From: Candidatus Woesebacteria bacterium RBG_13_46_13
GTDB lineage: Bacteria; Patescibacteriota; Microgenomatia; UBA8517
Length of the DNA stretch: 64,000 nt
Direction: 5' to 3'
Assembly (NCBI GenBank): GCA_001791995.1
Contig: MGFR01000001.1
Location: forward strand, 177,148 to 241,147
Shown here one piece after another: positions 8,606 through 53,063 of this stretch. Each line of letters opens with the position of its first letter. Position 1 is the first letter of the stretch. Position numbers and translations under genes: made by a program. The notes below the pieces were generated by a model, which was given only the letters and a program-made list of their open reading frames with translations, did no database searches and was not told the DNA's origin.

Positions 8606-9436
8606 ATGGAAAATTCATTTGGCTCGATTATCAACTCAGCGAACTCTATCTTGATCCTTCTTCCCTTGAAGCCCTACTTCGACCAGGTCGCGGCAGCGCT
8701 TTCGCTTTATTTGGCCATCAAAGGCAAAAAGGAGGCAACTATAGTTTGCACCACACCCATGATAGTGGAGTTTAACCGCCTAGTCGGGGTGAATAAAATC
8801 TCGACCGAAGTCGGAAACAAGAATTTGGTTATCCGTTTTGCCGGCTATAAGGCCAGCGAAATTGAAAAAGTCAGTTACGATGTCGAAAACGGCGAATTTC
8901 GTCTGACCGTGGTACCCAAAGCGGGGTTTGTCTCTCCTAAAAAGGAGCAGGTTGACCTTGGCTATTCTGGAATTTCAGCGGACACCGTAATTTTGGTGGG
9001 TGGAGCGATGGAATCGCACTTCCCAACCCTTTCCCAGGAAATCGCAGGGGCCAAGATTTTGCATATAGGGACCAGAGCCCTATCTGGAAGCGCCGCGCTT
9101 TCCTTTGCCAGACCTGCTTCCTCCACATCGGAGCTGGTTGCCCAGCTTATCGCCGAGGCCGGCCTGACTCTCGATGCGGATATCGCTACCAATTTACTGA
9201 TGGGAATTGAGGAGGGTAGCCGTGAATTCAAAGGACAGGATGTTACCGCTGATACATTTCAGACGATTGCAACATTATTAAGAGCCGGTGGGAAAAGAGG
9301 CGGAGCCAGGCCGGAGAAAACCACATTCCCGGTCGGGGCCATTCCCGGAGAAGTTTTTCAGGAGCCGGAAAAGAAGGAAGAACCTCCTAAAGATTGGCTG
9401 GAACCGAAGATTTATAAAGGGACAAGCGTTAGCTAG
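8606..9436 (+). CDS. DHH/NrnA-like phosphoesterase-fold protein with non-conserved catalytic motifs (probably inactive)
   Basis: Length and layout resemble NrnA (DHH plus DHHA1), and it sits in the infB neighbourhood as in other bacteria; the expected DHH Asp/His and GGGH motifs are substituted (LKPYFDQ..., GGKRGGA). Confidence 0.4.
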   Translation: MENSFGSIINSANSILILLPLKPYFDQVAAALSLYLAIKGKKEATIVCTTPMIVEFNRLVGVNKISTEVGNKNLVIRFAGYKASEIEKVSYDVENGEFRLTVVPKAGFVSPKKEQVDLGYSGISADTVILVGGAMESHFPTLSQEIAGAKILHIGTRALSGSAALSFARPASSTSELVAQLIAEAGLTLDADIATNLLMGIEEGSREFKGQDVTADTFQTIATLLRAGGKRGGARPEKTTFPVGAIPGEVFQEPEKKEEPPKDWLEPKIYKGTSVS

Positions 9437-12139: not shown

Positions 12140-13186
12140 ATGGATACTGCTGCCCAGGAAATTAGTTTACTGGAAGAAAAAATCAAGAAAGCTTCTTTGC
12201 CCGAAAAGCTGACCGAGGTTGTTTTGGTTAGGCTTAATCAGCTGACCAAGCTGACCAACTCCCCGACCTTCTTACCGGAATTTGACCGAATTGGCCGTTA
12301 TATAGACTGGATTACCAAGATTCCTTGGGGTCAAAAGACCCAGGACAGCTTGGATTTGGTAAATGCCAAGAAAATTCTCGACAAGAACCATTTCGGCCTC
12401 GGTGAGATCAAAGACAGAATTTTGGAATATATTTCCGTGATGAAACTCAAACAGGAAAAGGGCGAAGGCATCGAGATAACCCGCGCACCCATTCTTTGTT
12501 TTGTAGGCCTGGTCGGAACTGGCAAAACTACCATTGCCTTTTCGATTGCGGAGGCCCTCGGCAGAAAGTTTGCCAGAATTCCGTTTGGAGGAATGGGCGA
12601 CCCCCTGGATTTAAGAGGACAGTCGAGGATGTACGCCGAGGCCGAGCCCGGCAAGATTGTTAAATCCTTGGTGGTCAGCCAAAGCCGCAACCCGGTAATA
12701 CTGCTTGACGAGATAGACAGGGTAACCGATGCCGGCAGGGCCTCGATTATGGGAGTTTTGGTGGAACTTTTGGATCCCGAACAGAATCATGAATTTATCG
12801 ACCACTACATCGATTATCCGGTGGATTTATCGGAAGTCTTATTTATCGCAACAGCGAATAACACAACCAATATTTCAACTGCGGTTTTGGACAGAATTGA
12901 ACCCATCGCCATGCCGTCCTATTCGGACAACGAGAAAATTACCATCGGAATTTCGTATATCCTGCCCAAGGCAATGAAGGCCGCGGGAATTCCCGACGGG
13001 GCCCTGGTTATCGACCAAGACGTTTGGTCTAGCATCGTCAGGCCCTTGGGTTATGATGCTGGAATCAGAACGCTGGAAAGAACTATTGAAGGGCTGGTCA
13101 GGAAAGTCGCCCGAAGCATCGTTGAGGGAAAATCGACAGGTTTTCATATCAACGCCCAAAACGTCAGAGAATTTTTACCACAATAA
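12140..13186 (+). CDS. Lon-family AAA+ ATPase module lacking both the N-terminal domain and the S16 protease domain
   Basis: Aligns to the Lon region YIDW..PW..D...A...LD..H.GL..IKDRILEY, Walker A GLVGTGKTT, Walker B ILLDEIDR, sensor ATANN and LDRIEPI; the ORF stops exactly where the Lon protease domain would begin. Confidence 0.75.
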   Translation: MDTAAQEISLLEEKIKKASLPEKLTEVVLVRLNQLTKLTNSPTFLPEFDRIGRYIDWITKIPWGQKTQDSLDLVNAKKILDKNHFGLGEIKDRILEYISVMKLKQEKGEGIEITRAPILCFVGLVGTGKTTIAFSIAEALGRKFARIPFGGMGDPLDLRGQSRMYAEAEPGKIVKSLVVSQSRNPVILLDEIDRVTDAGRASIMGVLVELLDPEQNHEFIDHYIDYPVDLSEVLFIATANNTTNISTAVLDRIEPIAMPSYSDNEKITIGISYILPKAMKAAGIPDGALVIDQDVWSSIVRPLGYDAGIRTLERTIEGLVRKVARSIVEGKSTGFHINAQNVREFLPQ

Positions 13187-13187
13187 G

Positions 13188-13802
13188 ATGGAAGAGAAGG
13201 AAAAATCAGCAAGACTCCAGGATTTAAAAAAGAGAATGCAAAACGACACGGCTCTGCCTTTGAGAAATTCAGCCACCCAATTGGTTTTTGGTGAAGGCAG
13301 CCCTGATACTAAAATATTCTTTTTGGGAGAAGGCCCTGGTTATTGGGAAGACCAGAAAGGCAGACCTTTCGTGGGAAATGCGGGCGCTCTACTCAACCAG
13401 CTGCTTTATTCTATTAAACTACCCAGGCAAGACGTATTTATCACCAACGTGATCTGTTTTAGGCCACCGGAGAACAGAGATCCTTTACCCGAGGAGATTG
13501 AAGCTTTTAGGCCCTATATCGACGAAATGATTGATATCATGAAGCCTAAGCTGATTGTTACTCTGGGGCGCTTTTCTATGGCCAAATTTGTTCCCGGAGC
13601 CAAGATAACCGCTGTTCACGGAAAATCTTTCGTTGTAGACTGGAAGGGAAGAAAAATTACCGTTGTTCCGATGTTTCATCCTGCAGCGGCCTTAAGAAGC
13701 GGGGAAGTATTGCGAATGATTAAAGAAGACTTTATGCTTCTTCCTGATATCCTTAAGAAGGAAAACCAGGTACAGGCCGAACAGATGAATTTAAGCATAT
13801 GA
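13188..13802 (+). CDS. Uracil-DNA glycosylase, family 4-like
   Basis: GEGPGYWEDQKGRPFVGNAGALL motif A and a HPAAALR-type motif B; ATG at 13188 follows the Lon-like stop directly. Confidence 0.8.
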   Translation: MEEKEKSARLQDLKKRMQNDTALPLRNSATQLVFGEGSPDTKIFFLGEGPGYWEDQKGRPFVGNAGALLNQLLYSIKLPRQDVFITNVICFRPPENRDPLPEEIEAFRPYIDEMIDIMKPKLIVTLGRFSMAKFVPGAKITAVHGKSFVVDWKGRKITVVPMFHPAAALRSGEVLRMIKEDFMLLPDILKKENQVQAEQMNLSI

Positions 13803-15465: not shown

Positions 15466-17547
15466 ATGAGCAAGAGGCACAGACGTTCAACCAAAAGAGC
15501 TTTTAATCTCAGGCTGAAAAAAGGCACGGTCTATTCCATTGTCCAGGTCTTTTTCTTTGCCTTGGCAGGACTTATATTGGTGTCTTTTTCCAGGCAGGGG
15601 CTGGTTTTGGTGAGGCTTAATGATTTGCTCATCAGCGCTTTTTCCTGGACGACTTTTATTCTGCCCTTCCTTTTTCTTTCCTTTGCTTTGCTTGTTTCCA
15701 AAATCAAAAACCCGTTGGGGCAACCGAATGTGGTTATCGGCGGACTGCTTTTTTTTGTTTCGATCCTGACCCTAGGTAGGGCAGGAGCAATCGGCAGGAT
15801 GGCCTGGGGGGGAGCCTCTTCGTTGGTTACCTCCATCGGGGCCTTTATAGTACTTTTAGGTACCACACTGGTGGGGCTGATCATTCTTTTCAATACTTCT
15901 TTCGAACAGGTAATAGAATTGGCCTCGGGTATTATTGCCCAGGCCAAGAAATATATCCTTGGCGAAAAAGGATTTTCCAGGCAAACCTCCCGTGGGCCAA
16001 TGAAAGTCTCGGGTGGAGCTCTGCCCCAGGCTGGGGCAAGACCGCCGCAGGAAGTACCAGGACAACTCGAACAAAAATTGGTAAGTAATGTCCCCGGAGA
16101 AGAAAAGGTTTGGAAATATCCCTCCATCGAACTCTTAAGCGATGTCGAAAGCGGCAAGGCCAATCGCGGAGACATTAAAGGCAACGCCGCCACGATTGAA
16201 AAAACTCTTGAATCGTTTGGTATAACCGCACGGGTGGTTGAGGTTAACTTGGGCCCCGCGGTTACCCAATATGCACTTGAGGTGGCCCTGGGGACAAAGC
16301 TTTCGAAGATTACTTCCCTGGAGCGGGATTTAGCTCTGGCCCTTTCCGCCCCGACGGGAACAATCAGGATTGAGGCGCCGATTCCGGGAAGGAATCTGGT
16401 GGGCATAGAGCTGCCCAACATCAGCCCGGAGTTTGTTCCATTAAGAAGAATGATGGAATCCGATGTGATTAGGGATAATCATTCGAAGCTAGCCGTGGCC
16501 CTGGGATTGGATGTTTCGGGTAAGCCCATCGTCACCGAGATCGGCAGAATGCCCCACGTTCTGATTGCGGGCCAGACCGGCTCCGGAAAGTCGGTTTGTA
16601 TCAACGCTTTCTTGGCAACGATTCTTTTTAGGGCGGCCCCATCCGAGGTTAAGCTGATTATGGTTGACCCTAAGAGAGTAGAGCTGACCCATTACAACGG
16701 TATCCCGCACCTTCTCTCTCCGGTAATCGTCGAACCTGAAAAAGTGATATCTGCCCTGAAGTGGATTCTGGCGGAAATGGACAGGCGTTACAAGCTTTTT
16801 GCCCAAGCTGGAGCCAGAAATATCGATGGCTATAACGAAATGTCGGGTTTCCAGGCTCTTCCTTATATAGTGCTTTTCATCGACGAACTTGCGGATATCA
16901 TGCTTTTCTCACCGGTGGAGGTAGAAGATGCGATTACCAGAATTGCCCAGATGAGCCGGGCCACAGGTATACATATGGTTCTGGCGACCCAAAGACCTTC
17001 GGTGGATGTTATTACGGGTCTTATCAAGGCCAACATTCCCTGCAGGATAGCTTTTGCGGTTGCCTCCCAGGTAGATTCCCGGGTAATACTGGATACCCAG
17101 GGAGCGGAAAAACTCTTGGGGCGGGGAGATATGCTTTACCTGCCTCCCGAACAGGCCAAACCGATCAGAATTCAGGGAGCCTTCGTTTCGGATAAGGAGA
17201 CCAACGCACTGGTTGCCTTCCTTAAAAACCAGGGAGTTACCCCCCAATATACCGAGGAGGTAACCTCAATGCCTAAAGGTGGGGGGGCAACAGTTCCGGG
17301 TCTTACAGGTGAGGCAGACGATTTGTTTGCGGAAGCGGTGAGGGTAGTTTGCCAATACGAGAGAGCCTCGGCCTCCCTTTTGCAAAGACGGCTTTCAATC
17401 GGCTATGCCCGAGCAGCCCGAATTATCGACCAACTGGAAGCTGCCGGCGTCGTCAGCCAGGCTGAGGGATCCAAAGCCAGGGATGTTCTGGTCCAAAACG
17501 CCGAAGAATTTCTAGCTTCTGCCTCACAAGGTAGTGAGCCCCAATGA
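15466..17547 (+). CDS. ftsK: DNA translocase FtsK/SpoIIIE
   Basis: N-terminal TM segments, GQTGSGKSV Walker A, LFIDELAD Walker B, C-terminal gamma (wHTH) domain. Confidence 0.92.
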   Translation: MSKRHRRSTKRAFNLRLKKGTVYSIVQVFFFALAGLILVSFSRQGLVLVRLNDLLISAFSWTTFILPFLFLSFALLVSKIKNPLGQPNVVIGGLLFFVSILTLGRAGAIGRMAWGGASSLVTSIGAFIVLLGTTLVGLIILFNTSFEQVIELASGIIAQAKKYILGEKGFSRQTSRGPMKVSGGALPQAGARPPQEVPGQLEQKLVSNVPGEEKVWKYPSIELLSDVESGKANRGDIKGNAATIEKTLESFGITARVVEVNLGPAVTQYALEVALGTKLSKITSLERDLALALSAPTGTIRIEAPIPGRNLVGIELPNISPEFVPLRRMMESDVIRDNHSKLAVALGLDVSGKPIVTEIGRMPHVLIAGQTGSGKSVCINAFLATILFRAAPSEVKLIMVDPKRVELTHYNGIPHLLSPVIVEPEKVISALKWILAEMDRRYKLFAQAGARNIDGYNEMSGFQALPYIVLFIDELADIMLFSPVEVEDAITRIAQMSRATGIHMVLATQRPSVDVITGLIKANIPCRIAFAVASQVDSRVILDTQGAEKLLGRGDMLYLPPEQAKPIRIQGAFVSDKETNALVAFLKNQGVTPQYTEEVTSMPKGGGATVPGLTGEADDLFAEAVRVVCQYERASASLLQRRLSIGYARAARIIDQLEAAGVVSQAEGSKARDVLVQNAEEFLASASQGSEPQ

Positions 17548-18170
17548 AAACCATAGGCAGTTTTATTAAAGATGCCCGTGCCAAAAAGAGATATTCTTTG
17601 GCCAAACTAGAAGAAGCTACCAAGATCAAAAAGGATTTTATTGAGGCAATAGAGAAAGAGGATTGGAAGACCCTCCCCGATTATTCTGTTGTTGTGGGTT
17701 TTGTAAAGAATATCGCAGCGTATCTGCAGGCCGGCGAAAGGCAGGCAATAGCGCTTCTAAGAAGGGACTATCCTCCGCAAAAGTTATCCATAAATCCCAA
17801 ACCCGATGTTTCCAGGCAGTTTGTTTGGAGCCCAAAACTGACATTTTTTGTCGGCGTGGGAGCAGTGATTGCCATAATTGTCGGATATCTTATCTTCCAA
17901 TATGTCAGATTTATCAATCCTCCGCATCTTGAGGTTTTCGAGCCCAAAGAAGGACAGGTAGTTAATACGGCTGCAATCAGAGTCTCAGGAAAAACCGACG
18001 GCGACGCGGTAATTAAAGCCAATAATCAACCGATATTGGTATCCGACGACGGAAAATTTAGTGCAGACATTGAGATTTTCGCCGGAACTGGTGAAATCGT
18101 GGTCAAGGCCGTTTCCCGCTCTGGAAAAGAAACTACTGTAAAGCGTATGATAAAACCGGAGTTGAAATAA
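17544..18170 (+). CDS. HTH (XRE-type) membrane protein, RodZ-like
   Basis: N-terminal HTH (RYSLAKLEEATKIKKDFIEAIE), a single TM helix (VGVGAVIAIIVGYLIF), and a C-terminal beta-rich domain. Confidence 0.5.
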   Translation: MKTIGSFIKDARAKKRYSLAKLEEATKIKKDFIEAIEKEDWKTLPDYSVVVGFVKNIAAYLQAGERQAIALLRRDYPPQKLSINPKPDVSRQFVWSPKLTFFVGVGAVIAIIVGYLIFQYVRFINPPHLEVFEPKEGQVVNTAAIRVSGKTDGDAVIKANNQPILVSDDGKFSADIEIFAGTGEIVVKAVSRSGKETTVKRMIKPELK

Positions 18171-18171
18171 T

Positions 18172-18420
18172 ATGGACGGGGTACAAACATTATTGGCGGT
18201 TGTTGTGGTTTCTTTGACCGCCCTGTTGGTAATTGTCGGAATTCAAGTTCTTTTGATTATTGTCGATTTAAGGAAAGCAATAAAAAGACTCAATAGTATT
18301 CTGGAGGATGCCATCTTGGGTGGTGGGCTAATCAGGCCGGAAAAGCTTACTGGAGTAATCGAGATTATCAAGAGAAACAAGAGATTGGAAACTCTTGGAG
18401 CGGATTCCTCGGAGAAATAG
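18172..18420 (+). CDS. Small membrane protein (82 aa), hypothetical
   Basis: N-terminal TM helix followed by a charged helix; tightly coupled 1 nt after the RodZ-like gene. Confidence 0.35.
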   Translation: MDGVQTLLAVVVVSLTALLVIVGIQVLLIIVDLRKAIKRLNSILEDAILGGGLIRPEKLTGVIEIIKRNKRLETLGADSSEK

Positions 18421-18489: not shown

Positions 18490-20259
18490 ATGACCACAGA
18501 CGAGATTCGCGAAAAATACCTAAAATTTTTTGAAGAAAGGGGACACGCAAAAATAGAGGCAGCTCCTCTGGTTTTGGAAAACGATCCGACTACCCTTTTT
18601 ACCTCGGCCGGAATGCAGCCTTTAATTCCCTACCTTAAGGGTGAAGTGCACCCCAAAGGCAAAAGGCTGGTGGATATTCAGCCTTCTTTAAGACTGCAGG
18701 ATATTGAAGAAGTGGGAGATGCTTCCCACACTACTTTTTTTGAGATGCTTGGCAACTGGAGCTTGGGAGATTATTTCAAAAAAGAGCAGCTTGCCTGGTG
18801 TTGGGAGTTTTTTACAAAAGAACTGGGACTAGAGCCCGAAAGACTTTATGTTTCTGTTTTTGAAGGAACAAAGGATGTTCCCAAAGATACAGAGTCCGCC
18901 GATGTTTGGAAAAGCCTGGGAGTTCCCGAGGAGAGAATTTTTTACTACGGAGTCGATAAGAACTGGTGGAGCAGAAGCGGAACTCCGGATTCAATGCCCG
19001 ATGGAGAAATCGGCGGTCCGGACTCCGAAATCTTCTTTGAATTTACAGATATTCCCCACAACAAAAAATACGGCAAGGATTGTCACCCCAACTGCCAGTG
19101 TGGAAGGTTCATGGAGATAGGCAACTCCGTCTTTATTCAGTACGAAAAGCAAAAAGACGGCACCCTTTCCGAGCTCCCCCAGAAGAATGTTGACTTTGGA
19201 GGGGGACTGGAAAGAATCTCGGCCGCCGTTGGCGGCTATTCAGACATTTTTCTGACCGACATTTACGAGCAGGCCATAAGGGTGATGGAAAAGATTACGG
19301 GAAGAAAGTATCGCCAGGTAAAATCGGAAAGCGCAGATTTTAGAATCATTGCCGACCACCTAAGGGCTGCGGTAGCAATTGCAAAAAACGGAGTCTATCC
19401 CGGCAATAAACTTCAGGGTTATGTTCTACGCAGATTGATAAGAAGAGCCGTTGCGAAGATACGCCAGATTAAACCAGATTCTGCAGTGGATATTATCGGA
19501 AAAATGTGCGAATCGTTTGGGGCGAGTAACGACGTGGGCGACGTGATTAAGGAGGAAGTGGAAAAATTTGAAAGAATCTTACTTGAGGGCGCAAGGGTAG
19601 TAAAACAGAATCCCAAAATTGACCCCTTTGAACTTTATCAATCGTTCGGAATTCCATACGAGATGTCTCTTGAGATTTTTTCGGGAGTGGGGAGATTGCT
19701 GACGGATAAGGACAAAAAGGAGTTCGAGAAAAAATTCGAAGAGCATCAAGAACAATCAAGAAGTGCCTCCGCTGGAATGTTTAAGGGAGGCTTGGCCGAT
19801 GCGTCTGAAGAGGTAACCAAACTTCATACCGCCACTCATCTGGTCCATGCCGCGTTAAGAAAAGTATTGGGAGAGACCGTGTCCCAGAAAGGCTCAAATA
19901 TCACTGCGGAAAGATTAAGATTCGACTTTTCCCATGCTGAAAAATTAACAGATGGACAAATAAAGAAAGTAGAAGGTCTTATTAACGAAGTTGTTGATAA
20001 AGACTTACCGGTTACGTTTGAAACTAAAACATTGGACGAAGCTATTAAGGAAGGTGCTTTGCATTTCTTCGGCGAAAGATACGGGAATGAAGTAAAAGTC
20101 TATACCATCGGGGACCCCAAGGGCGGCTGGTTCTCAAAGGAAGTTTGCGGCGGGCCTCATGTTGAACACACGCATCTTATTGGCCATGTTAGAATAGTTA
20201 AGCAGGAGAAAGTCGGCTCGGGAATTGTCAGAATCTATGCCACGAATAAGCCCGAGTAG
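18490..20259 (+). CDS. alaS: Alanine--tRNA ligase (catalytic plus editing domains; no C-Ala domain)
   Basis: FTSAGMQP, FFEMLGNWSLGDYFK class II motifs; editing domain HTATHLVHAAL...CGGPHV; 589 aa. Confidence 0.9.
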   Translation: MTTDEIREKYLKFFEERGHAKIEAAPLVLENDPTTLFTSAGMQPLIPYLKGEVHPKGKRLVDIQPSLRLQDIEEVGDASHTTFFEMLGNWSLGDYFKKEQLAWCWEFFTKELGLEPERLYVSVFEGTKDVPKDTESADVWKSLGVPEERIFYYGVDKNWWSRSGTPDSMPDGEIGGPDSEIFFEFTDIPHNKKYGKDCHPNCQCGRFMEIGNSVFIQYEKQKDGTLSELPQKNVDFGGGLERISAAVGGYSDIFLTDIYEQAIRVMEKITGRKYRQVKSESADFRIIADHLRAAVAIAKNGVYPGNKLQGYVLRRLIRRAVAKIRQIKPDSAVDIIGKMCESFGASNDVGDVIKEEVEKFERILLEGARVVKQNPKIDPFELYQSFGIPYEMSLEIFSGVGRLLTDKDKKEFEKKFEEHQEQSRSASAGMFKGGLADASEEVTKLHTATHLVHAALRKVLGETVSQKGSNITAERLRFDFSHAEKLTDGQIKKVEGLINEVVDKDLPVTFETKTLDEAIKEGALHFFGERYGNEVKVYTIGDPKGGWFSKEVCGGPHVEHTHLIGHVRIVKQEKVGSGIVRIYATNKPE

Positions 20260-20265
20260 TTTTCT

Positions 20266-22479
20266 ATGGATTTCAAGAGCTTTTTATCAGGCGAAAAATT
20301 GGGAGCAAAGGAGCATTACTGGGCTTTGGTTATTGAGCCCGGTTGGATCCAAGCGGGCATATGGGAAATAGCAGGAGATAAGGCAGAGGTGACCTCGGTA
20401 AGCCCCCCTGCAGCTTGGGAGGTAGAAGAAGAAATAATCGGGGCGGCAGACACGGCCCTTTCGGCAGCAGTACAGAATTTACCTGAGGATATCGGTGAGC
20501 CTTCAAAAACCGTATTTGGAGTTCCAACTTCCTGGGTTTCCGAAGGACAGATAAAAGCAGAACACCTGGAAAAGATTAAAAGAATCTGTTCGGAGCTTTC
20601 ACTGGAGCCTTCCGGTTTCGTAGTTTTACCCGAGGCAATAGCCCATCATGTTAAGTCCGAAGAGGGAGCTCCCCTTAATGCCGTGGTTATCGGCGTTGGC
20701 GATGAAAACATTGAAATATCCGTCTTTAAACTGGGGAATTTGGTGGGAAACTCCGTGGTGGCCAGAAGCGTCTCGATCGCCGATGATGTTGCCGAGGGCC
20801 TGGCGAGATTTTCCGGAAGCGAAGCGCTTCCCTCAAGGCTCCTGCTTTATGACGGCAAAGAAGGAGAACTCGAAGAAGTCAGACAAAATCTCTTAAAGGT
20901 TTCTTGGGAAGAGCAGGAAAAAGTAAAATTCCTACACACTCCCAAGGTAGAGATTGTGGACCCCGACACCAAGGTTTTGGCAACGGCTCTGGCCGGAGCC
21001 TCGGAAATAGCTAACGTTTCCAGTGTCGAGTCCACCAAAAAAGAGTATGAGGAGGAAGAGGGAGAAATTCCGCCCGAGACCGAAAACGTCGGCAAACCGG
21101 ATGGGGGCATCAATGCCGAGGATTTGGGTTTTGCGATAGGGGAAGATGTTGCCAAAAAGCCCGGAGCGCCCAGCCCCGAGACAACGCAAGCCCTTCCCAC
21201 ACAAAACGCCCCGCAACCTTCGAGACCAGCCCCGCCCGCGACCTTACCAAAAGGTTTTGAGGTTGGACGATTCTTCGCTAGGGTGAAAAATTTTCTGGTA
21301 TCACTATTGCCCACCAAGACGATCCAAACAGGATTCCCCGCCCCAGGCAAAAGAGTATTTGCCTTGGGTCTAGGATTTTTTGTATTTCTGATAATTTTGA
21401 GCTTTGTTCTTTGGTGGTATCTGCCCAAGGCCGTGGTTTCTATTTATGTTTCCCCTAAAAACATCGAGCAAAAGACGGATGTGGTTTTTGACACCACTGT
21501 CTCCAGTCCGGATTTGGCCAGCGCGGTAATACCTGCGCAGATAGACAAGACGGAAGTTTCCGGGGATAAGACAAAATCAACGACCGGAACCAAGGTAGTC
21601 GGAGAGAAGGCCAAAGGGAGTGTCAAGATTCGTAACGGCACAGCCAGCAACATTAATCTTGCGGTCGGTACCATTTTGGCAGGAACAAATGACCTTAAAT
21701 TTAGCATCAATTCCGCAGCTTCCGTATCGGCTGCACTTTCTCCTTCCGAGCCGGGTACGGCAACGGTTGATGTTTCGGCTGTAGATATCGGTTCGCAATA
21801 CAATCTTGGCAAAGACGAAACCTTTAAAGTGGGCAATTACCCCAAAGCGGATGTTGACGCGGTTGCGCTTTCGGATTTTTCCGGAGGTACCAGTCGGGAG
21901 ATTTCCGCCGTTTCCGAGGACGACCAAAAGGGATTGGAAGAGGAGTTGACCGCCGAGCTTTTGGATAAAGCCAAGCAATCTCTTTCCCAGGAGGTGGGAG
22001 AGGATAAATTGTTTATTGAGGACAGTCTCACTCCAACTGTCGGGTCGAAATCCTTCAGCAACAAGGTGGGAGATGAAGCCTCAACCCTCAAGCTCTCTTT
22101 GGATCTAAAAGTCAGCGGAATTGCGGTCGACAAAAAGATGTTTTACGAGTTTGCCAGAGAAACGTTGAAAGAAAAAGTACCTTCAGGGTTTGTCTTAAGA
22201 GACGAACAGTTAAAAAACAGATTTGTGCTTATTGACGAGAACAAGGGCGTATACGAAATGGAGGCGGTAATTGCTGCAAACCTTCTGCCGGAGTTAAAAA
22301 TTGATGAGATTGCCAAGAATATTTCAGGGAGATCCAGCGTTGTTGCCGAAAGATACCTTTCCTCCATCCCCGGATTTAGCCGGGCGGAAATTAAAATCAA
22401 ACCCCCGCTTTTTGGCAAGCTTAAGGTGTTGCCGAGAATAACGAAGAACATTCAGATAGAAGTTGCTGCCGAAAGATAA
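20266..22479 (+). CDS. Large bitopic protein: N-terminal actin-fold ATPase-like domain (FtsA/PilM-like), Pro-rich linker, one TM helix, roughly 350-aa extracytoplasmic beta-rich domain
   Basis: Sugar-kinase/actin-fold-like segments (HYWALVIEPGWIQAGIW; LNAVVIGVGDENIEISVF); linker PSPETTQALPTQNAPQPSRPAPPATLP; TM VFALGLGFFVFLIILSFVLWWYL. Confidence 0.5.
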   Translation: MDFKSFLSGEKLGAKEHYWALVIEPGWIQAGIWEIAGDKAEVTSVSPPAAWEVEEEIIGAADTALSAAVQNLPEDIGEPSKTVFGVPTSWVSEGQIKAEHLEKIKRICSELSLEPSGFVVLPEAIAHHVKSEEGAPLNAVVIGVGDENIEISVFKLGNLVGNSVVARSVSIADDVAEGLARFSGSEALPSRLLLYDGKEGELEEVRQNLLKVSWEEQEKVKFLHTPKVEIVDPDTKVLATALAGASEIANVSSVESTKKEYEEEEGEIPPETENVGKPDGGINAEDLGFAIGEDVAKKPGAPSPETTQALPTQNAPQPSRPAPPATLPKGFEVGRFFARVKNFLVSLLPTKTIQTGFPAPGKRVFALGLGFFVFLIILSFVLWWYLPKAVVSIYVSPKNIEQKTDVVFDTTVSSPDLASAVIPAQIDKTEVSGDKTKSTTGTKVVGEKAKGSVKIRNGTASNINLAVGTILAGTNDLKFSINSAASVSAALSPSEPGTATVDVSAVDIGSQYNLGKDETFKVGNYPKADVDAVALSDFSGGTSREISAVSEDDQKGLEEELTAELLDKAKQSLSQEVGEDKLFIEDSLTPTVGSKSFSNKVGDEASTLKLSLDLKVSGIAVDKKMFYEFARETLKEKVPSGFVLRDEQLKNRFVLIDENKGVYEMEAVIAANLLPELKIDEIAKNISGRSSVVAERYLSSIPGFSRAEIKIKPPLFGKLKVLPRITKNIQIEVAAER

Positions 22480-22491
22480 TTCTCTTCCTAA

Positions 22492-23184
22492 ATGAATAAA
22501 AAAGTATTTTATAAAATAGCAGCGGTTGTTTCCGCGATATCGGGACTTATCATCTTGGCGGCGGTTATGCTGCCGATTTTAAGCTATGAAAACTCTTCCG
22601 CCAAACTGTACCCAAAACTTATCAGTCCCCTGACCCCGAATAAGGTACTTTCGGGGGAGGCCCAAAACCTGGATTACACCAAGGCTTCAAACTGGTTTCC
22701 CGCCGCCGCTTCTAAAGAAAAATTTATCTCCAGCAATATTTCTTTCTATACCCTGAGTATTTCCAAGCTGAAGATTGAAAATGCCAGCGTTGCCATCGGC
22801 GGAGAAGACTTGGCCAAGAGTCTGATTCAATATCCCGGTACGGCCTTACCCGGCAGACCCGGTAACTCGGTAATTTTCGGGCACTCGATTCTCCCCATTT
22901 TTTATAATCCCAAAGATTATATTTCGATTTTTTCAACTCTCCCCAGTTTAAAAAAGGGAGACGATATTGAAGTAAACTACGACGGGGCCACCTATAAATA
23001 CAAAGTCGAAAATCTATTTGAAGTATTACCCTCCGATATCCAGGTTTTGGAACAGGACTCAACAGACTCGTTTCTGACGCTGGTTACTTGTGTTCCGCCG
23101 GGGGACCCCAGAAAACCTAAAAGGTTGATAGTCAGGGCCAGGATAGTTCCTTTAAAGGAGGCAAATGAAGTACTTGGGCGTTGA
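22492..23184 (+). CDS. Sortase-family transpeptidase
   Basis: N-terminal TM anchor, conserved His (VIFGHS), catalytic TLVTC motif and downstream Arg (RLIVRAR). Confidence 0.75.
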   Translation: MNKKVFYKIAAVVSAISGLIILAAVMLPILSYENSSAKLYPKLISPLTPNKVLSGEAQNLDYTKASNWFPAAASKEKFISSNISFYTLSISKLKIENASVAIGGEDLAKSLIQYPGTALPGRPGNSVIFGHSILPIFYNPKDYISIFSTLPSLKKGDDIEVNYDGATYKYKVENLFEVLPSDIQVLEQDSTDSFLTLVTCVPPGDPRKPKRLIVRARIVPLKEANEVLGR

Positions 23185-23545
23185 TTATGGCAGGAGCAAA
23201 GTCGGGATTTCCCTGGCGGTGGCGGGTTTGGCTGAACCTTATCGCGTAATCAGATATCAAGATTTAAATACACTCAAAGGACAGATTGCTGAGATTGTTA
23301 AAAAAGAAGAAATAGATAAGATAGTGGTTGGGGTCTCCGAGGGAAAGTCGAAAGAGGAAGCGGAAGATTTCGGTAAAAACTTAAGCGTTGATGCTCCGGT
23401 TGTCTTTTTTGACGAAACTCTTTCAACCCAGCTGGCCCAGGCGCTCTCCCGGGAAGCCGGGGTAAAGAGGAAAAAAAGAAAAGCACTCGAGGATGCTTTT
23501 GCCGCAAGCGTTATGTTACAATCCTTCTTAGACAGCAATGTTTAA
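23165..23545 (+). CDS. ruvX: Holliday-junction-resolvase-like nuclease YqgF/RuvX
   Basis: YLGVDYGRSKVGISLA N-terminal RNase H-fold motif; about 126 aa; conserved neighbourhood with mltG downstream of alaS. Confidence 0.75.
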   Translation: MKYLGVDYGRSKVGISLAVAGLAEPYRVIRYQDLNTLKGQIAEIVKKEEIDKIVVGVSEGKSKEEAEDFGKNLSVDAPVVFFDETLSTQLAQALSREAGVKRKKRKALEDAFAASVMLQSFLDSNV

Positions 23546-23738
23546 AAATGTAATAGCCCCAATCCAGGCTTGGCTGCTTTCGCAGGGAAGATGCGTGGGT
23601 TGCGGCAGGGAACTCTCCCTTGCCAAAAAAGAGAACAGGCGGGATGGAACTCAAAAAGCAACTTGCGCCTGCGGCCGTATTTTTATCTTCGACCCCAAGA
23701 CCAAAAGATACCGACGCGCTCTTCTGGAAGAAGTTTAG
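23538..23738 (+). CDS. Small zinc-ribbon protein (CxGCG...CxCG), hypothetical
   Basis: 66 aa with two Cys pairs 22 residues apart; positionally like the small gene between yqgF and yceG in other bacteria. Confidence 0.4.
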   Translation: MFKNVIAPIQAWLLSQGRCVGCGRELSLAKKENRRDGTQKATCACGRIFIFDPKTKRYRRALLEEV

Positions 23739-23741
23739 AGG

Positions 23742-24716
23742 ATGAAGAAATACATCGCCCTGCTTGCCCTTGTTGTAGTCTTAATTGGGCTACTTTCTGC
23801 CGCGAATTATTGGTGGCAGAATACGTCTAAACCCGTCAGTAATCAGAGAGAAGATGTTGATTTTTTGATTACTAAAGGAAGTTCTGCTGGCAAGGTCGGG
23901 CTTCAACTTCAGCAAGAAGGTTTAATTCGCTCAGCCACCGCTTTCAGGCTTTATGTTCAGCTGACCGGGAAATCCAAAAGTATCCAGGCGGGGGAATATA
24001 GCCTTTCGGCGAATTACTCTCTGATTAAAATGGTTGATATTCTTTCCAAAGGGCCGATAGAAGTCTGGGTGACGATTCCGGAAGGGCTAAGGCGGGAAGA
24101 GGTTGCCTTAAGATTTGCCGACGGATTGGGCAAGAAAGACAAGGGGCCCTTTGTCGAGGAATTTTTAAGTTCTTCAAAGGGAAAAGAGGGTTATCTTTTC
24201 CCAGATACCTACCTTTTCCCCAAAACGGGCACCGCCCAACAGGTTGTTAATAAAATGCTGACAACTTTTGACAACAAAATAGAACCGTTTACCAAAGATA
24301 TTTCCCCCTCGTCCTTGTCTAAAAACGAAATTGTTACCCTGGCCTCGATTGTAGAAAGAGAGTCCAGATCCGACTCGGAAAGGCCAGTTGTTGCCGGCAT
24401 TCTATTAAACAGAATCGATATCGGCATGGGGCTTGGAGCCGATGCTACTGTCCAGTATGCGGTGGGGACTGCCGAAAATTGGTGGCCGATTCTGTCCAAA
24501 GACGATTTGGCAACGGCTTCCCCATATAATACCTATAGATTCCGCGGACTACCCCCAACACCTATCGCCAACCCGGGAATCTCTTCTTTGCGCGCGGCGA
24601 TTTTTCCCGAGGAGTCCGATTATCTCTACTACCTGCACGACGCAAAAGGACAGATATATTACGCTACAACACTTGCCCAGCACAACGAAAACATACGCAA
24701 GTACTTGGGTAAGTAA
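23742..24716 (+). CDS. mltG: Endolytic murein transglycosylase MltG (YceG family)
   Basis: N-terminal TM, then a YceG domain (GEYSL, VTIPEG..REE motif region, LYYLH near the C-terminus). Confidence 0.85.
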   Translation: MKKYIALLALVVVLIGLLSAANYWWQNTSKPVSNQREDVDFLITKGSSAGKVGLQLQQEGLIRSATAFRLYVQLTGKSKSIQAGEYSLSANYSLIKMVDILSKGPIEVWVTIPEGLRREEVALRFADGLGKKDKGPFVEEFLSSSKGKEGYLFPDTYLFPKTGTAQQVVNKMLTTFDNKIEPFTKDISPSSLSKNEIVTLASIVERESRSDSERPVVAGILLNRIDIGMGLGADATVQYAVGTAENWWPILSKDDLATASPYNTYRFRGLPPTPIANPGISSLRAAIFPEESDYLYYLHDAKGQIYYATTLAQHNENIRKYLGK

Positions 24717-51779: not shown

Positions 51780-53063
51780 ATGCGCGCTAAAGCCGGAATT
51801 ACACTCCCCAAAGGCACAAAAGTTCCAGACCACATCGCGATTATTCCCGACGGCAACCGCCGTTGGGCCAGAGCCAGAGGACTCCCGACTCTCCAAGGCC
51901 ACAAAAAAGGATTTGACGCTGCAGTACTTGTTTCCAGGGCAGCCAGAGATATCGGTATCCATACCGTAACCATGTGGGGATTTTCAACGGACAATTGGGA
52001 TCGGGCAAAAGAGGAAATAAATTATCTAATGAAGCTTTATGCCAAACTGGTAGACGATTATCTTAAGGACGCAAAGAAAGACAATGTCAAAATAGTTCAC
52101 CTTGGCAGAAAAGACAGGCTTCCCCAACTCCTTCTTAAAAAGATTGCTTTTGCGGAAGAAACAACCAAGGATAACTCCAAATATATTATGAATATCGCCA
52201 TCGATTACGGTGGCCAGGACGATATCATCCGGGCCACCCAAAGCATGATCAAAGATGGGGTCAAAGCCGAACAGGTAGACAAAGCTCTTTTTGAAAAATA
52301 CTTGGATACGAAAGACCAGCCCTATCCTTATGTCGATTTGATAATTAGATCATCGGGTGAACAAAGGACCAGCGGATTTTTGCTTTGGCAGTCCGCTTAT
52401 GCGGAAACATATTGGGAAAACGACCATTTTCCCGACTTCACACCCGAAAAGCTTAAGGCAGCCATTCTCGACTATTCGAGACGCAGAAGAAGGTTTGGAG
52501 GTAATGATGCCGAGGAACACCTCAAATTTAACCCCGAGGTCGTTGCTAAACTTGAAGTTGCCTGGTGGAGATTAAGGAAGATTCCCGAGGGGACGCGCTT
52601 TAGGGATTACGCCTTTAAACACCTAAGAGAGCAGTACGGATTTTCAAAGCACATCGCCAAGAAAGCCGCCAAGTATTTACTTACCGCATTTTTGGAGCAG
52701 GACAACGGCAGAAACTGGGAAAAGGCCATGCGGGAGGTCGGCAAGTTTTACTCTCTTTTAAGAGAAGAGCTGAAGCTGGCCTTTGAGCCGTCCTTGGTTG
52801 CTTCCTTGGAAGTTAAGATGTGGAGGGACCTGGAGGGCAAGGACGAGGTCCGTTCTGCGGGTGAGGCAGAAGAGACCGCCAGAGAGCTTTACGCGGAAGT
52901 CTATAGAATATCTCTTCTGCAGGCAGCCAAAGCGGCCCATTTAAGGGTTATGGCCAATATCGAGCGGGGTTTGGCCGAGCGGGGATTCGGAGACAAACAC
53001 TGGGCCAGGGCAGAGGACTACTTGGAGAAATTCTACCGTGCCCTCAAGGAAAGAGTTGCCTAA
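51780..53063 (+). CDS. uppS: Undecaprenyl-diphosphate synthase (cis-prenyltransferase) with a roughly 180-aa helical C-terminal extension
   Basis: HIAIIPDGNRRWA signature, and the ...RTSGFLLWQSAYAE and DYSRRRRRFG motifs; 427 aa against a typical length of about 250. Confidence 0.88.
   Translation: MRAKAGITLPKGTKVPDHIAIIPDGNRRWARARGLPTLQGHKKGFDAAVLVSRAARDIGIHTVTMWGFSTDNWDRAKEEINYLMKLYAKLVDDYLKDAKKDNVKIVHLGRKDRLPQLLLKKIAFAEETTKDNSKYIMNIAIDYGGQDDIIRATQSMIKDGVKAEQVDKALFEKYLDTKDQPYPYVDLIIRSSGEQRTSGFLLWQSAYAETYWENDHFPDFTPEKLKAAILDYSRRRRRFGGNDAEEHLKFNPEVVAKLEVAWWRLRKIPEGTRFRDYAFKHLREQYGFSKHIAKKAAKYLLTAFLEQDNGRNWEKAMREVGKFYSLLREELKLAFEPSLVASLEVKMWRDLEGKDEVRSAGEAEETARELYAEVYRISLLQAAKAAHLRVMANIERGLAERGFGDKHWARAEDYLEKFYRALKERVA

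Follow-up and report, generated by a model that had tools for sequence, protein, structure and literature searches.

A class-wide Microgenomates membrane protein joins a minimal actin-like domain to a baseplate J-type ectodomain and is encoded beside an unclassified sortase

Proteins that couple an actin-fold domain to the far side of the membrane are known in bacteria. PilM binds the N-terminus of PilN, and GspL, an actin-fold protein that does not bind ATP, carries its actin-like cytoplasmic domain without ATP motifs, one transmembrane (TM) helix and an outer domain in a single chain. Here we analyzed a 64-kb stretch of DNA (the window), which matches Candidatus Woesebacteria bacterium RBG_19FT_COMBO_47_8 / RBG_13_46_13 of the Microgenomates in the Candidate Phyla Radiation (CPR), and describe in it a gene pair encoding a membrane protein of 737 amino acids (aa), 100% identical to OGM10239.1/OGM16767.1, and a sortase. 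The 737-aa protein joins a minimal actin-like domain that has lost the ATP-binding motifs to an extracytoplasmic domain with a baseplate J-type β-barrel, and the two genes are adjacent throughout the class. The Microgenomates, a large class of ultra-small and as yet uncultured bacteria, have lineage-specific membrane proteins that are mostly uncharacterised (PMC6744442). Both folds, like the general design, are already known, while the combination of the actin-fold domain with the baseplate J-type ectodomain, the 737-aa family itself, whose N-terminal domain is covered by no Pfam or NCBIfam model, and the constant adjacency of its gene to that of an unclassified sortase appear to be new. A first-pass annotation of the sequence had considered the fusion and the pairing undescribed in standard families, and we likewise found no description of the family, the combination or the pairing in the literature, including the supplements of PMC6744442.

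To describe the overall layout of the protein, we obtained a full-length AlphaFold2 model from 71 homologues, with a mean predicted local distance difference test score (pLDDT) of 83, and a family alignment of 362 sequences at 24-71% identity. The model confirms the arrangement proposed from the sequence, in which a Pro-rich linker and one TM helix lead from the N-terminal domain to a β-rich ectodomain of ~350 aa (Table 1). A GKR sequence lies on the N-terminal side of the TM helix, and the topology is therefore N-in/C-out, with the actin-like domain in the cytoplasm and the β-rich domain outside. Both open reading frames (ORFs) that had been noticed as extra genes between alaS and ruvX/mltG are real and lie on the forward strand.

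The cytoplasmic domain had been taken for an actin-like ATPase of the FtsA/PilM/MreB type covering the N-terminal ~330 aa. Its actin fold was upheld by the AlphaFold2 model and by structural matching, with the folded part amounting to ~245 aa (residues 14-256) only; the assignment was thus supported for the fold, and not for the size, the family or the activity. Specifically, the domain is modelled mostly at pLDDT >90, has the two lobes of the ASKHA fold as well as the PilM-type fold, and matches FtsA, MreB, ParM and actin, 211 of 370 FtsA residues being aligned. At this size it is too small to hold the 1C (SHS2) insert of FtsA or the IB and IIB subdomains of actin, all of which are absent from the model. 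No Pfam or NCBIfam model of the actin fold matches the window protein or 61 diverse relatives, and the PilM and GspL Pfam families likewise gave no match in the 61 members; the sole profile trace on the domain is to TIGR01174 (ftsA), at 12.3 bits and E 0.065 against a cut-off of 175.85. The likeness to FtsA and to PilM therefore lies in the two-lobed fold, whereas the missing 1C subdomain, the unconserved ATP loops and the score below the TIGR01174 cut-off set the protein apart from FtsA. The two also differ in anchorage, since FtsA is held by a C-terminal amphipathic helix and the 737-aa protein by a true TM helix with a large fused ectodomain.

The loops equivalent to Phosphate-1, Phosphate-2 and Adenosine (residues 24-27, 143-148 and 195-200) vary across the 362 family members. 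At position 24, for example, the residue is E in 205, S in 36, T in 32, G in 27 and D in 19 of them; positions 143-148 show no DxGGxT pattern, and the equivalents of DxG and GGxxxG are unconserved as well. The conserved residues of the domain lie elsewhere, namely W33, an EPxKTVFG segment, GFVV, RSxSxxDDVxEGLxRF, LPSR and FLHTPK. Because the ATP-binding loops are so variable, the domain is most likely a nucleotide-free scaffold, or pseudo-ATPase, as in GspL, and as judged from the alignment the family would add a further actin-fold protein that gave up ATP binding. If the protein were instead an active actin-like ATPase or formed filaments while held in the membrane by its own TM helix, as a true analogue of FtsA, MreB or ParM, the fold matches and the weak TIGR01174 trace would be accounted for. 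We consider this very unlikely, as the nucleotide-binding motifs are unconserved, the domain is small and devoid of the 1C, IB and IIB subdomains, and the ftsA score falls far below its cut-off.

The ectodomain was also modelled alone, from 93 homologues (pLDDT 94.2, predicted template-modelling score 0.76), and proved structurally similar to baseplate wedge proteins. Its β-barrel matches Pfam PF04865 at 22.9 bits, narrowly exceeding the gathering score (21.1), and covers only profile positions 21-113 of 255; among 61 diverse family members PF04865 is matched in 41, with a best E of 1.2e-9, and PF21110, the GlxA β-barrel, in two. GlxA, the membrane-anchored radical copper oxidase of Streptomyces, aligns to the ectodomain over ~133 residues of its 599-residue chain; the common part is the PF21110 barrel, and no further GlxA-related family is matched in the 737-aa family. 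Searches of the PDB by sequence and by profile with the 737-aa protein returned no match, and PADLOC gave only noise (E>0.003). Within the cluster, no protein segment evolves faster than the ectodomain, whose mean distance over 33 loci is 0.83, compared with 0.61 for the N-terminal domain and 0.43 for the sortase; this fits an exposed surface domain.

In UniProt and NCBI, the protein and its close relatives are named hypothetical protein, 'Baseplate protein J-like domain-containing protein' or 'baseplate J/gp47 family protein'. Taken literally, the last name, supported by the PF04865 match, would make the gene a genuine baseplate J protein left by a prophage or a contractile injection system. 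This explanation is effectively refuted by context and topology, and we give it a negligible likelihood. The likeness to wedge proteins of the Baseplate J/gp47/gp6/TssF type is confined to the β-barrel (~117-141 aa) and to a part of the PF04865 profile. Whereas wedge proteins are soluble and assembled in the cytoplasm, this barrel is extracellular and membrane-tethered, C-terminal to the TM helix of an N-in protein and fused to an actin-fold domain. The usual genetic context of wedge proteins (gp25/W-like, gpI/gp7-like, hub, sheath and tube genes) is absent and no other tail or baseplate gene lies nearby; instead, the gene adjoins alaS and the sortase gene in every locus and keeps its place in a housekeeping cluster throughout the class. 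Moreover, no phage relative was found at the sequence level, since PHROGs gave no match and the best tblastn match in 50,697 phage records had an E of 0.5, and the GC content across the pair equals that of the flanks. The automatically assigned label 'baseplate J/gp47 family protein' is thus misleading, and in this family a baseplate-type domain has been put to use outside any injection system.

The first-pass annotation had compared the architecture to a PilM-PilN/O or FtsA-FtsQ fusion, and for the outer half this analogy fails, as no PilN, PilO, GspL, GspM or FtsQ structure is found among the top 60 structural matches of the ectodomain. A related explanation is that the protein serves pilus or secretion alignment, as a fused PilM-PilN/O-like or GspL-like link between a cytoplasmic assembly ATPase and an extracellular fibre. 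The PilM-type fold and the single-chain, GspL-like order of domains resemble such a link; however, the ferredoxin-like fold of PilN, PilO, GspL and GspM is absent from the ectodomain, the protein matches no GspL structure or Pfam family and so resembles GspL only in part, and neither type IV pilus genes (pilB/C/T/N/O), in ~95 loci around the gene, nor type II secretion genes are found near it. In one Microgenomates genome, the pilus genes, including a pilM of their own, are reported to be grouped in a single separate locus (PMC7143001). We therefore regard a role in pilus or secretion alignment as quite unlikely. The Pam pilus of CPR bacteria is unrelated, being made of chaperone-usher-like parts without an actin-fold protein or a sortase; the weak match to PamR (E 0.015, far under the cut-off) belongs to a RodZ-like neighbour and not to the 737-aa protein.

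Between the actin-like domain and the TM helix, the linker is unconserved except for one motif containing a GF pair. As demonstrated by the family alignment, G288 is kept in 348, F289 in 351 and D294 in 305 of the 362 sequences, and the pLDDT climbs locally to ~62 at this site. The motif resembles those that serve as short linear ligands, and is a candidate for binding in cis or in trans. Speculatively, and by analogy with the binding of PilN by PilM, its receptor may be the actin-fold domain of the same chain, or another partner.

The second gene of the pair encodes, as had been recognized, a membrane-anchored sortase with a TLVTC motif, located at residues 196-200. The assignment is supported by PF04203 (E 5e-24; 84.9 bits against 26.6) and TIGR01076 (53.3 bits against a cut-off of 39.35), both above their cut-offs. 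The anchor is N-terminal, which places the catalytic domain outside the cell, and the catalytic residues His131, Cys200 of the TLVTC motif and Arg215 do not vary among 77 orthologues. The closest PDB and NCBIfam matches are to class C, followed by classes E and D; none of the NCBIfam cut-offs for classes A-F/GN is reached, however, with 54.2 bits against 160 for class C, 45.7 against 160 for class E, 41.1 against 165 for class D, 26.9 against 166 for class F and 27.1 against 158 for class GN. The enzyme thus shares with class C and class E sortases the fold, the His-Cys-Arg triad, the TLVTC motif and the N-terminal anchor, but scores far below their cut-offs and carries a lineage-specific motif, DYTKASNWF, which may be lid-like by comparison with the lid of class C sortases.

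In contrast to sortase-substrate cassettes, the sortase gene of the window has no adjacent pilin or substrate gene. The earlier remark that no LPXTG-type substrate is visible nearby was extended to the whole 64-kb window and 93 related loci, none of which contains an ORF with a C-terminal sorting signal. We also considered the 737-aa protein itself as a substrate and rejected it, as its C-terminus is a folded strand (pLDDT >85) without a hydrophobic tail. For the same reasons, and for want of a conserved Thr, the C-terminal 'LPRxxKN' is not accepted as a non-canonical sorting signal. A pilin-type 'YPK' nucleophile (NYPK, residues 524-527) was attributed to chance, with K527 present in only 193 of 362 members (53%).

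The conservation of the pair was examined in 90 loci from genomes and metagenomes, to which three (L091-L093) were added later. The sortase gene lies directly 3' of the 737-aa gene in 86 of 86 testable loci, the contigs of the other four ending first, and in the three added loci (3/3). This adjacency holds to ~24-30% identity across Microgenomates, and the full-length architecture is retained to ~24-32%; among the best 150 matches listed for the window protein, full-length ones reach ~32% identity. The family comprises 5126 clusters at 50% identity with E<=1e-3, or 1262 with E<=1e-30, and its named members are all Microgenomates (Woese-, Beckwith-, Shapiro-, Curtiss- and Gottesmanbacteria, and genomes of the 'Microgenomates group'). 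It therefore spans all five named lineages recovered and is fixed in a core housekeeping operon. These findings bear out the expectation that the pair would recur in relatives: it is ancestral to the class and vertically inherited, not a chance insertion. Sortases are reported to occur in nearly all Microgenomates and to be patchily distributed in the rest of the CPR (PMC6744442), a distribution that parallels the range of the 737-aa family. One locus (L002, CAZOUV010000002.1) is labelled 'uncultured Gammaproteobacteria bacterium' and contains the full Microgenomates-type cluster (ftsK, rodZ, alaS, the pair, ruvX, mltG and rpoB); the taxonomic label of the metagenome-assembled genome behind it is probably wrong.

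The two genes are also closely spaced. The commonest spacing, -4 nucleotides (nt), is an ATGA overlap and occurs in 18-22 loci; in most loci the gap is <=30 nt, and the sortase gene is often translationally coupled to the 737-aa gene. Counted as insertions of >400 nt between cluster genes, interruptions number 0/86 at the junction of the pair, compared with 10/60 between the gene for a small 82-aa protein and alaS, 3/75 between the sortase gene and ruvX, 8/67 between ruvX and the following Zn-ribbon-like ORF, and 4/52 between mltG and rpoB. The trio of alaS, the 737-aa gene and the sortase gene stays intact where the flanks are remodelled, namely in L086, with RuBisCO/AMP-pathway genes past the sortase gene, in L092, with genes for NUDIX, peptidase and DUF5652 proteins, and in L093, with an entirely different upstream region. 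In L086 (9963-13341) and L093 (9422-10681), genes of the nucleotide-salvage RuBisCO pathway, encoding an IF-2B-like isomerase, a form II/III-type RuBisCO large subunit and an AMP/thymidine phosphorylase, stand right past the sortase gene in place of ruvX. The site 3' of the sortase gene is thus a hot-spot for insertions, whereas none splits the pair.

Taken with the architecture, this pairing leads us to a tentative reading of the 737-aa protein as a lineage-specific transmembrane adaptor, comparable to FtsA-FtsN, PilM-PilN and GspL, that possibly organises a sortase step; we consider it plausible, though somewhat short of probable. In its favour are the variable ATP-binding loops, the class-wide conservation, the uninterrupted junction of the pair, the envelope and division genes of the cluster and the parallel distribution of sortases. 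The N-terminal domain would dock on a cytoplasmic partner, either a cytoskeleton of the FtsZ/FtsA/MreB type or an assembly ATPase, and the ectodomain would organise an extracellular step beside the membrane. The best candidate for this step would be the sortase-mediated anchoring of surface proteins to the nascent wall, and surface-protein attachment would thereby be positioned relative to envelope growth or division. The existence of the genes, the folds, the topology, the loss of the ATP-binding motifs and the class-wide conserved adjacency are established; any physical or functional link of the protein to the sortase, the divisome or pili is inferred by analogy with the described systems. 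The protein would then be a concrete candidate for coupling cytoplasmic organisation to the wall and surface in Microgenomates cells, with a possible bearing on sortase-dependent surface display, and as a class-wide, misannotated envelope protein of an uncultured lineage it is probably important.

Several observations weigh against the adaptor reading. The junction between alaS and the 737-aa gene is as free of insertions (0/85) as that of the pair, so that adjacency by itself does not tell functional coupling apart from a frozen operon. CPR genomes retain long housekeeping superoperons, and adjacency in them is only a weak sign that genes work together. The neighbourhood contains neither a sortase substrate nor a gene for FtsZ, FtsA or pili, and neither ftsZ nor ftsQ occurs in the 64-kb window. 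As the alignment to baseplate proteins takes in only ~117-141 of the 352 ectodomain residues, the bulk of the ectodomain is without a functional analogue. Finally, co-evolution of the ectodomain with the sortase found no support (residual r = -0.35) when pairwise distances from 33 non-redundant loci were regressed on the cluster background, a crude test that could miss a real interaction.

In a different explanation, the gene order is frozen: the 737-aa protein would be functionally independent of the sortase, both being part of an ancient housekeeping superoperon (rnj-ftsK-rodZ-alaS-X-srt-ruvX-mltG-rpoB), and would have a role of its own as an envelope scaffold or surface protein, for example as a surface-layer organiser or as a host-contact or phage-facing protein. 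The entire cluster is co-linear in ~90 loci; alaS has no plausible functional tie to either gene of the pair, yet shares an equally uninterrupted junction with the 737-aa gene; and the rapid evolution of the ectodomain, which showed no rate covariation with the sortase, is as expected for a surface domain under its own pressures. However, the ATGA start/stop overlaps and the survival of the pair amid reshuffled flanks (L086, L092 and L093) suggest selection for co-expression, and both proteins act at one and the same membrane surface. We consider a frozen order to be a serious but somewhat doubtful explanation. A bolder version of the adaptor reading would see the barrel of a contractile-injection-system baseplate domesticated as a surface module and wired to the nucleotide-free FtsA/PilM-like domain, forming with the sortase an envelope-spanning machine that builds or positions a surface structure, such as an episymbiotic attachment organelle, under cytoplasmic or cell-cycle control; this we regard as unlikely.

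The features of the pair and of its immediate surroundings are listed in Table 1. The cluster runs on one strand in the order rnj, ftsK, a RodZ-like HTH-TM gene, an 82-aa TM gene, alaS, the pair, ruvX, the Zn-ribbon-like ORF, mltG and rpoB/rpoC, and thus includes the envelope and division genes ftsK, the RodZ-like gene and mltG, with murJ farther upstream.

Table 1. Coordinates of the gene pair, its domains and motifs, and adjacent genes in the 64-kb window
Feature	Position	Strand	Details
alaS (short, 589 aa)	18490..20259	+	NCBIfam NF002436, 621.8 bits against a cut-off of 529
737-aa bitopic membrane protein gene	20266..22479	+	ATG 6 nt past the alaS stop
Minimal ASKHA (actin-like) domain, residues 14-256	20305..21033	+	Two β3-α-β-α-β-α halves (AlphaFold2)
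Disordered cytoplasmic linker, residues 257-361	21034..21348	+	pLDDT <50 over most; P16, E12 and G11 of 105 residues
Linker motif [DE]-L-G-F-x-x-G-x-D-[VI], residues 286-295	21121..21150	+	Near-invariant; candidate peptide ligand
Predicted juxtamembrane helix, residues 335-347 (RFFARVKNFLVSL)	21268..21306	+	AlphaFold2 helix 334-346; sequence unconserved
Single TM helix, residues 364-386	21355..21423	+	AlphaFold2 helix 362-385; hydrophobic stretch in the sequence
Extracytoplasmic domain, residues 387-737	21424..22476	+	β-rich region with barrel, long helix (551-576) and C-terminal α/β subdomains
Baseplate_J-type β-barrel, residues 447-545	21604..21900	+	Pfam PF04865
Sortase gene, 230 aa	22492..23184	+	Starts 12 nt past the 737-aa gene; 20-nt overlap with ruvX
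Sortase N-terminal membrane anchor, residues 6-30	22507..22581	+	Read from the sequence
Sortase DYTKASNWF motif, residues 61-69	22672..22698	+	Conserved in 77 orthologues; between anchor and catalytic domain
Sortase catalytic domain, residues 100-218	22789..23145	+	His131 22882-22884, Cys200 23089-23091, Arg215 23134-23136
ruvX	23165..23545	+	Profile searches (Pfam, NCBIfam); synteny
66-aa Zn-ribbon-like ORF	23538..23738	+	Between ruvX and mltG
mltG/YceG	23742..24716	+	Profile searches (Pfam, NCBIfam); synteny

Several other proteins of the window were also noted. The RodZ-like protein (17544-18170, +) combines an HTH_25 domain with a TM helix and, outside the cell, a Glucodextran_B-like (Ig-like) domain. 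The gene of the 82-aa single-TM protein (18172-18420, +) precedes alaS and is never separated by >400 nt from the RodZ-like gene on its other side; the protein is kept at 58-87% identity across loci and has no Pfam or NCBIfam match. The 66-aa Zn-ribbon-like ORF contains two CxxC pairs and is present in ~67 loci at 61-85% identity, above the 40-65% of ruvX; it belongs to no family, its Pfam A24_N_bact match (E 0.009) being below the cut-off. Farther away, the window encodes a UppS homologue of 427 aa (51780-53063, +), in which the prenyltransferase domain covers only residues ~13-245 and is followed by a C-terminal extension of ~180 aa without a family match. A 276-aa ORF (8606-9436, +) without a Pfam or NCBIfam match lies between pnp and infB, the latter being short at 466 aa. 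A Lon-like AAA+ module of 348 aa (12140-13186, +) covers only positions 253-570 of TIGR00763, without the N-terminal and protease domains, and the 3' end of its gene overlaps the start of the UDG-family gene when the longest ORF of the latter (13053-13802) is taken.

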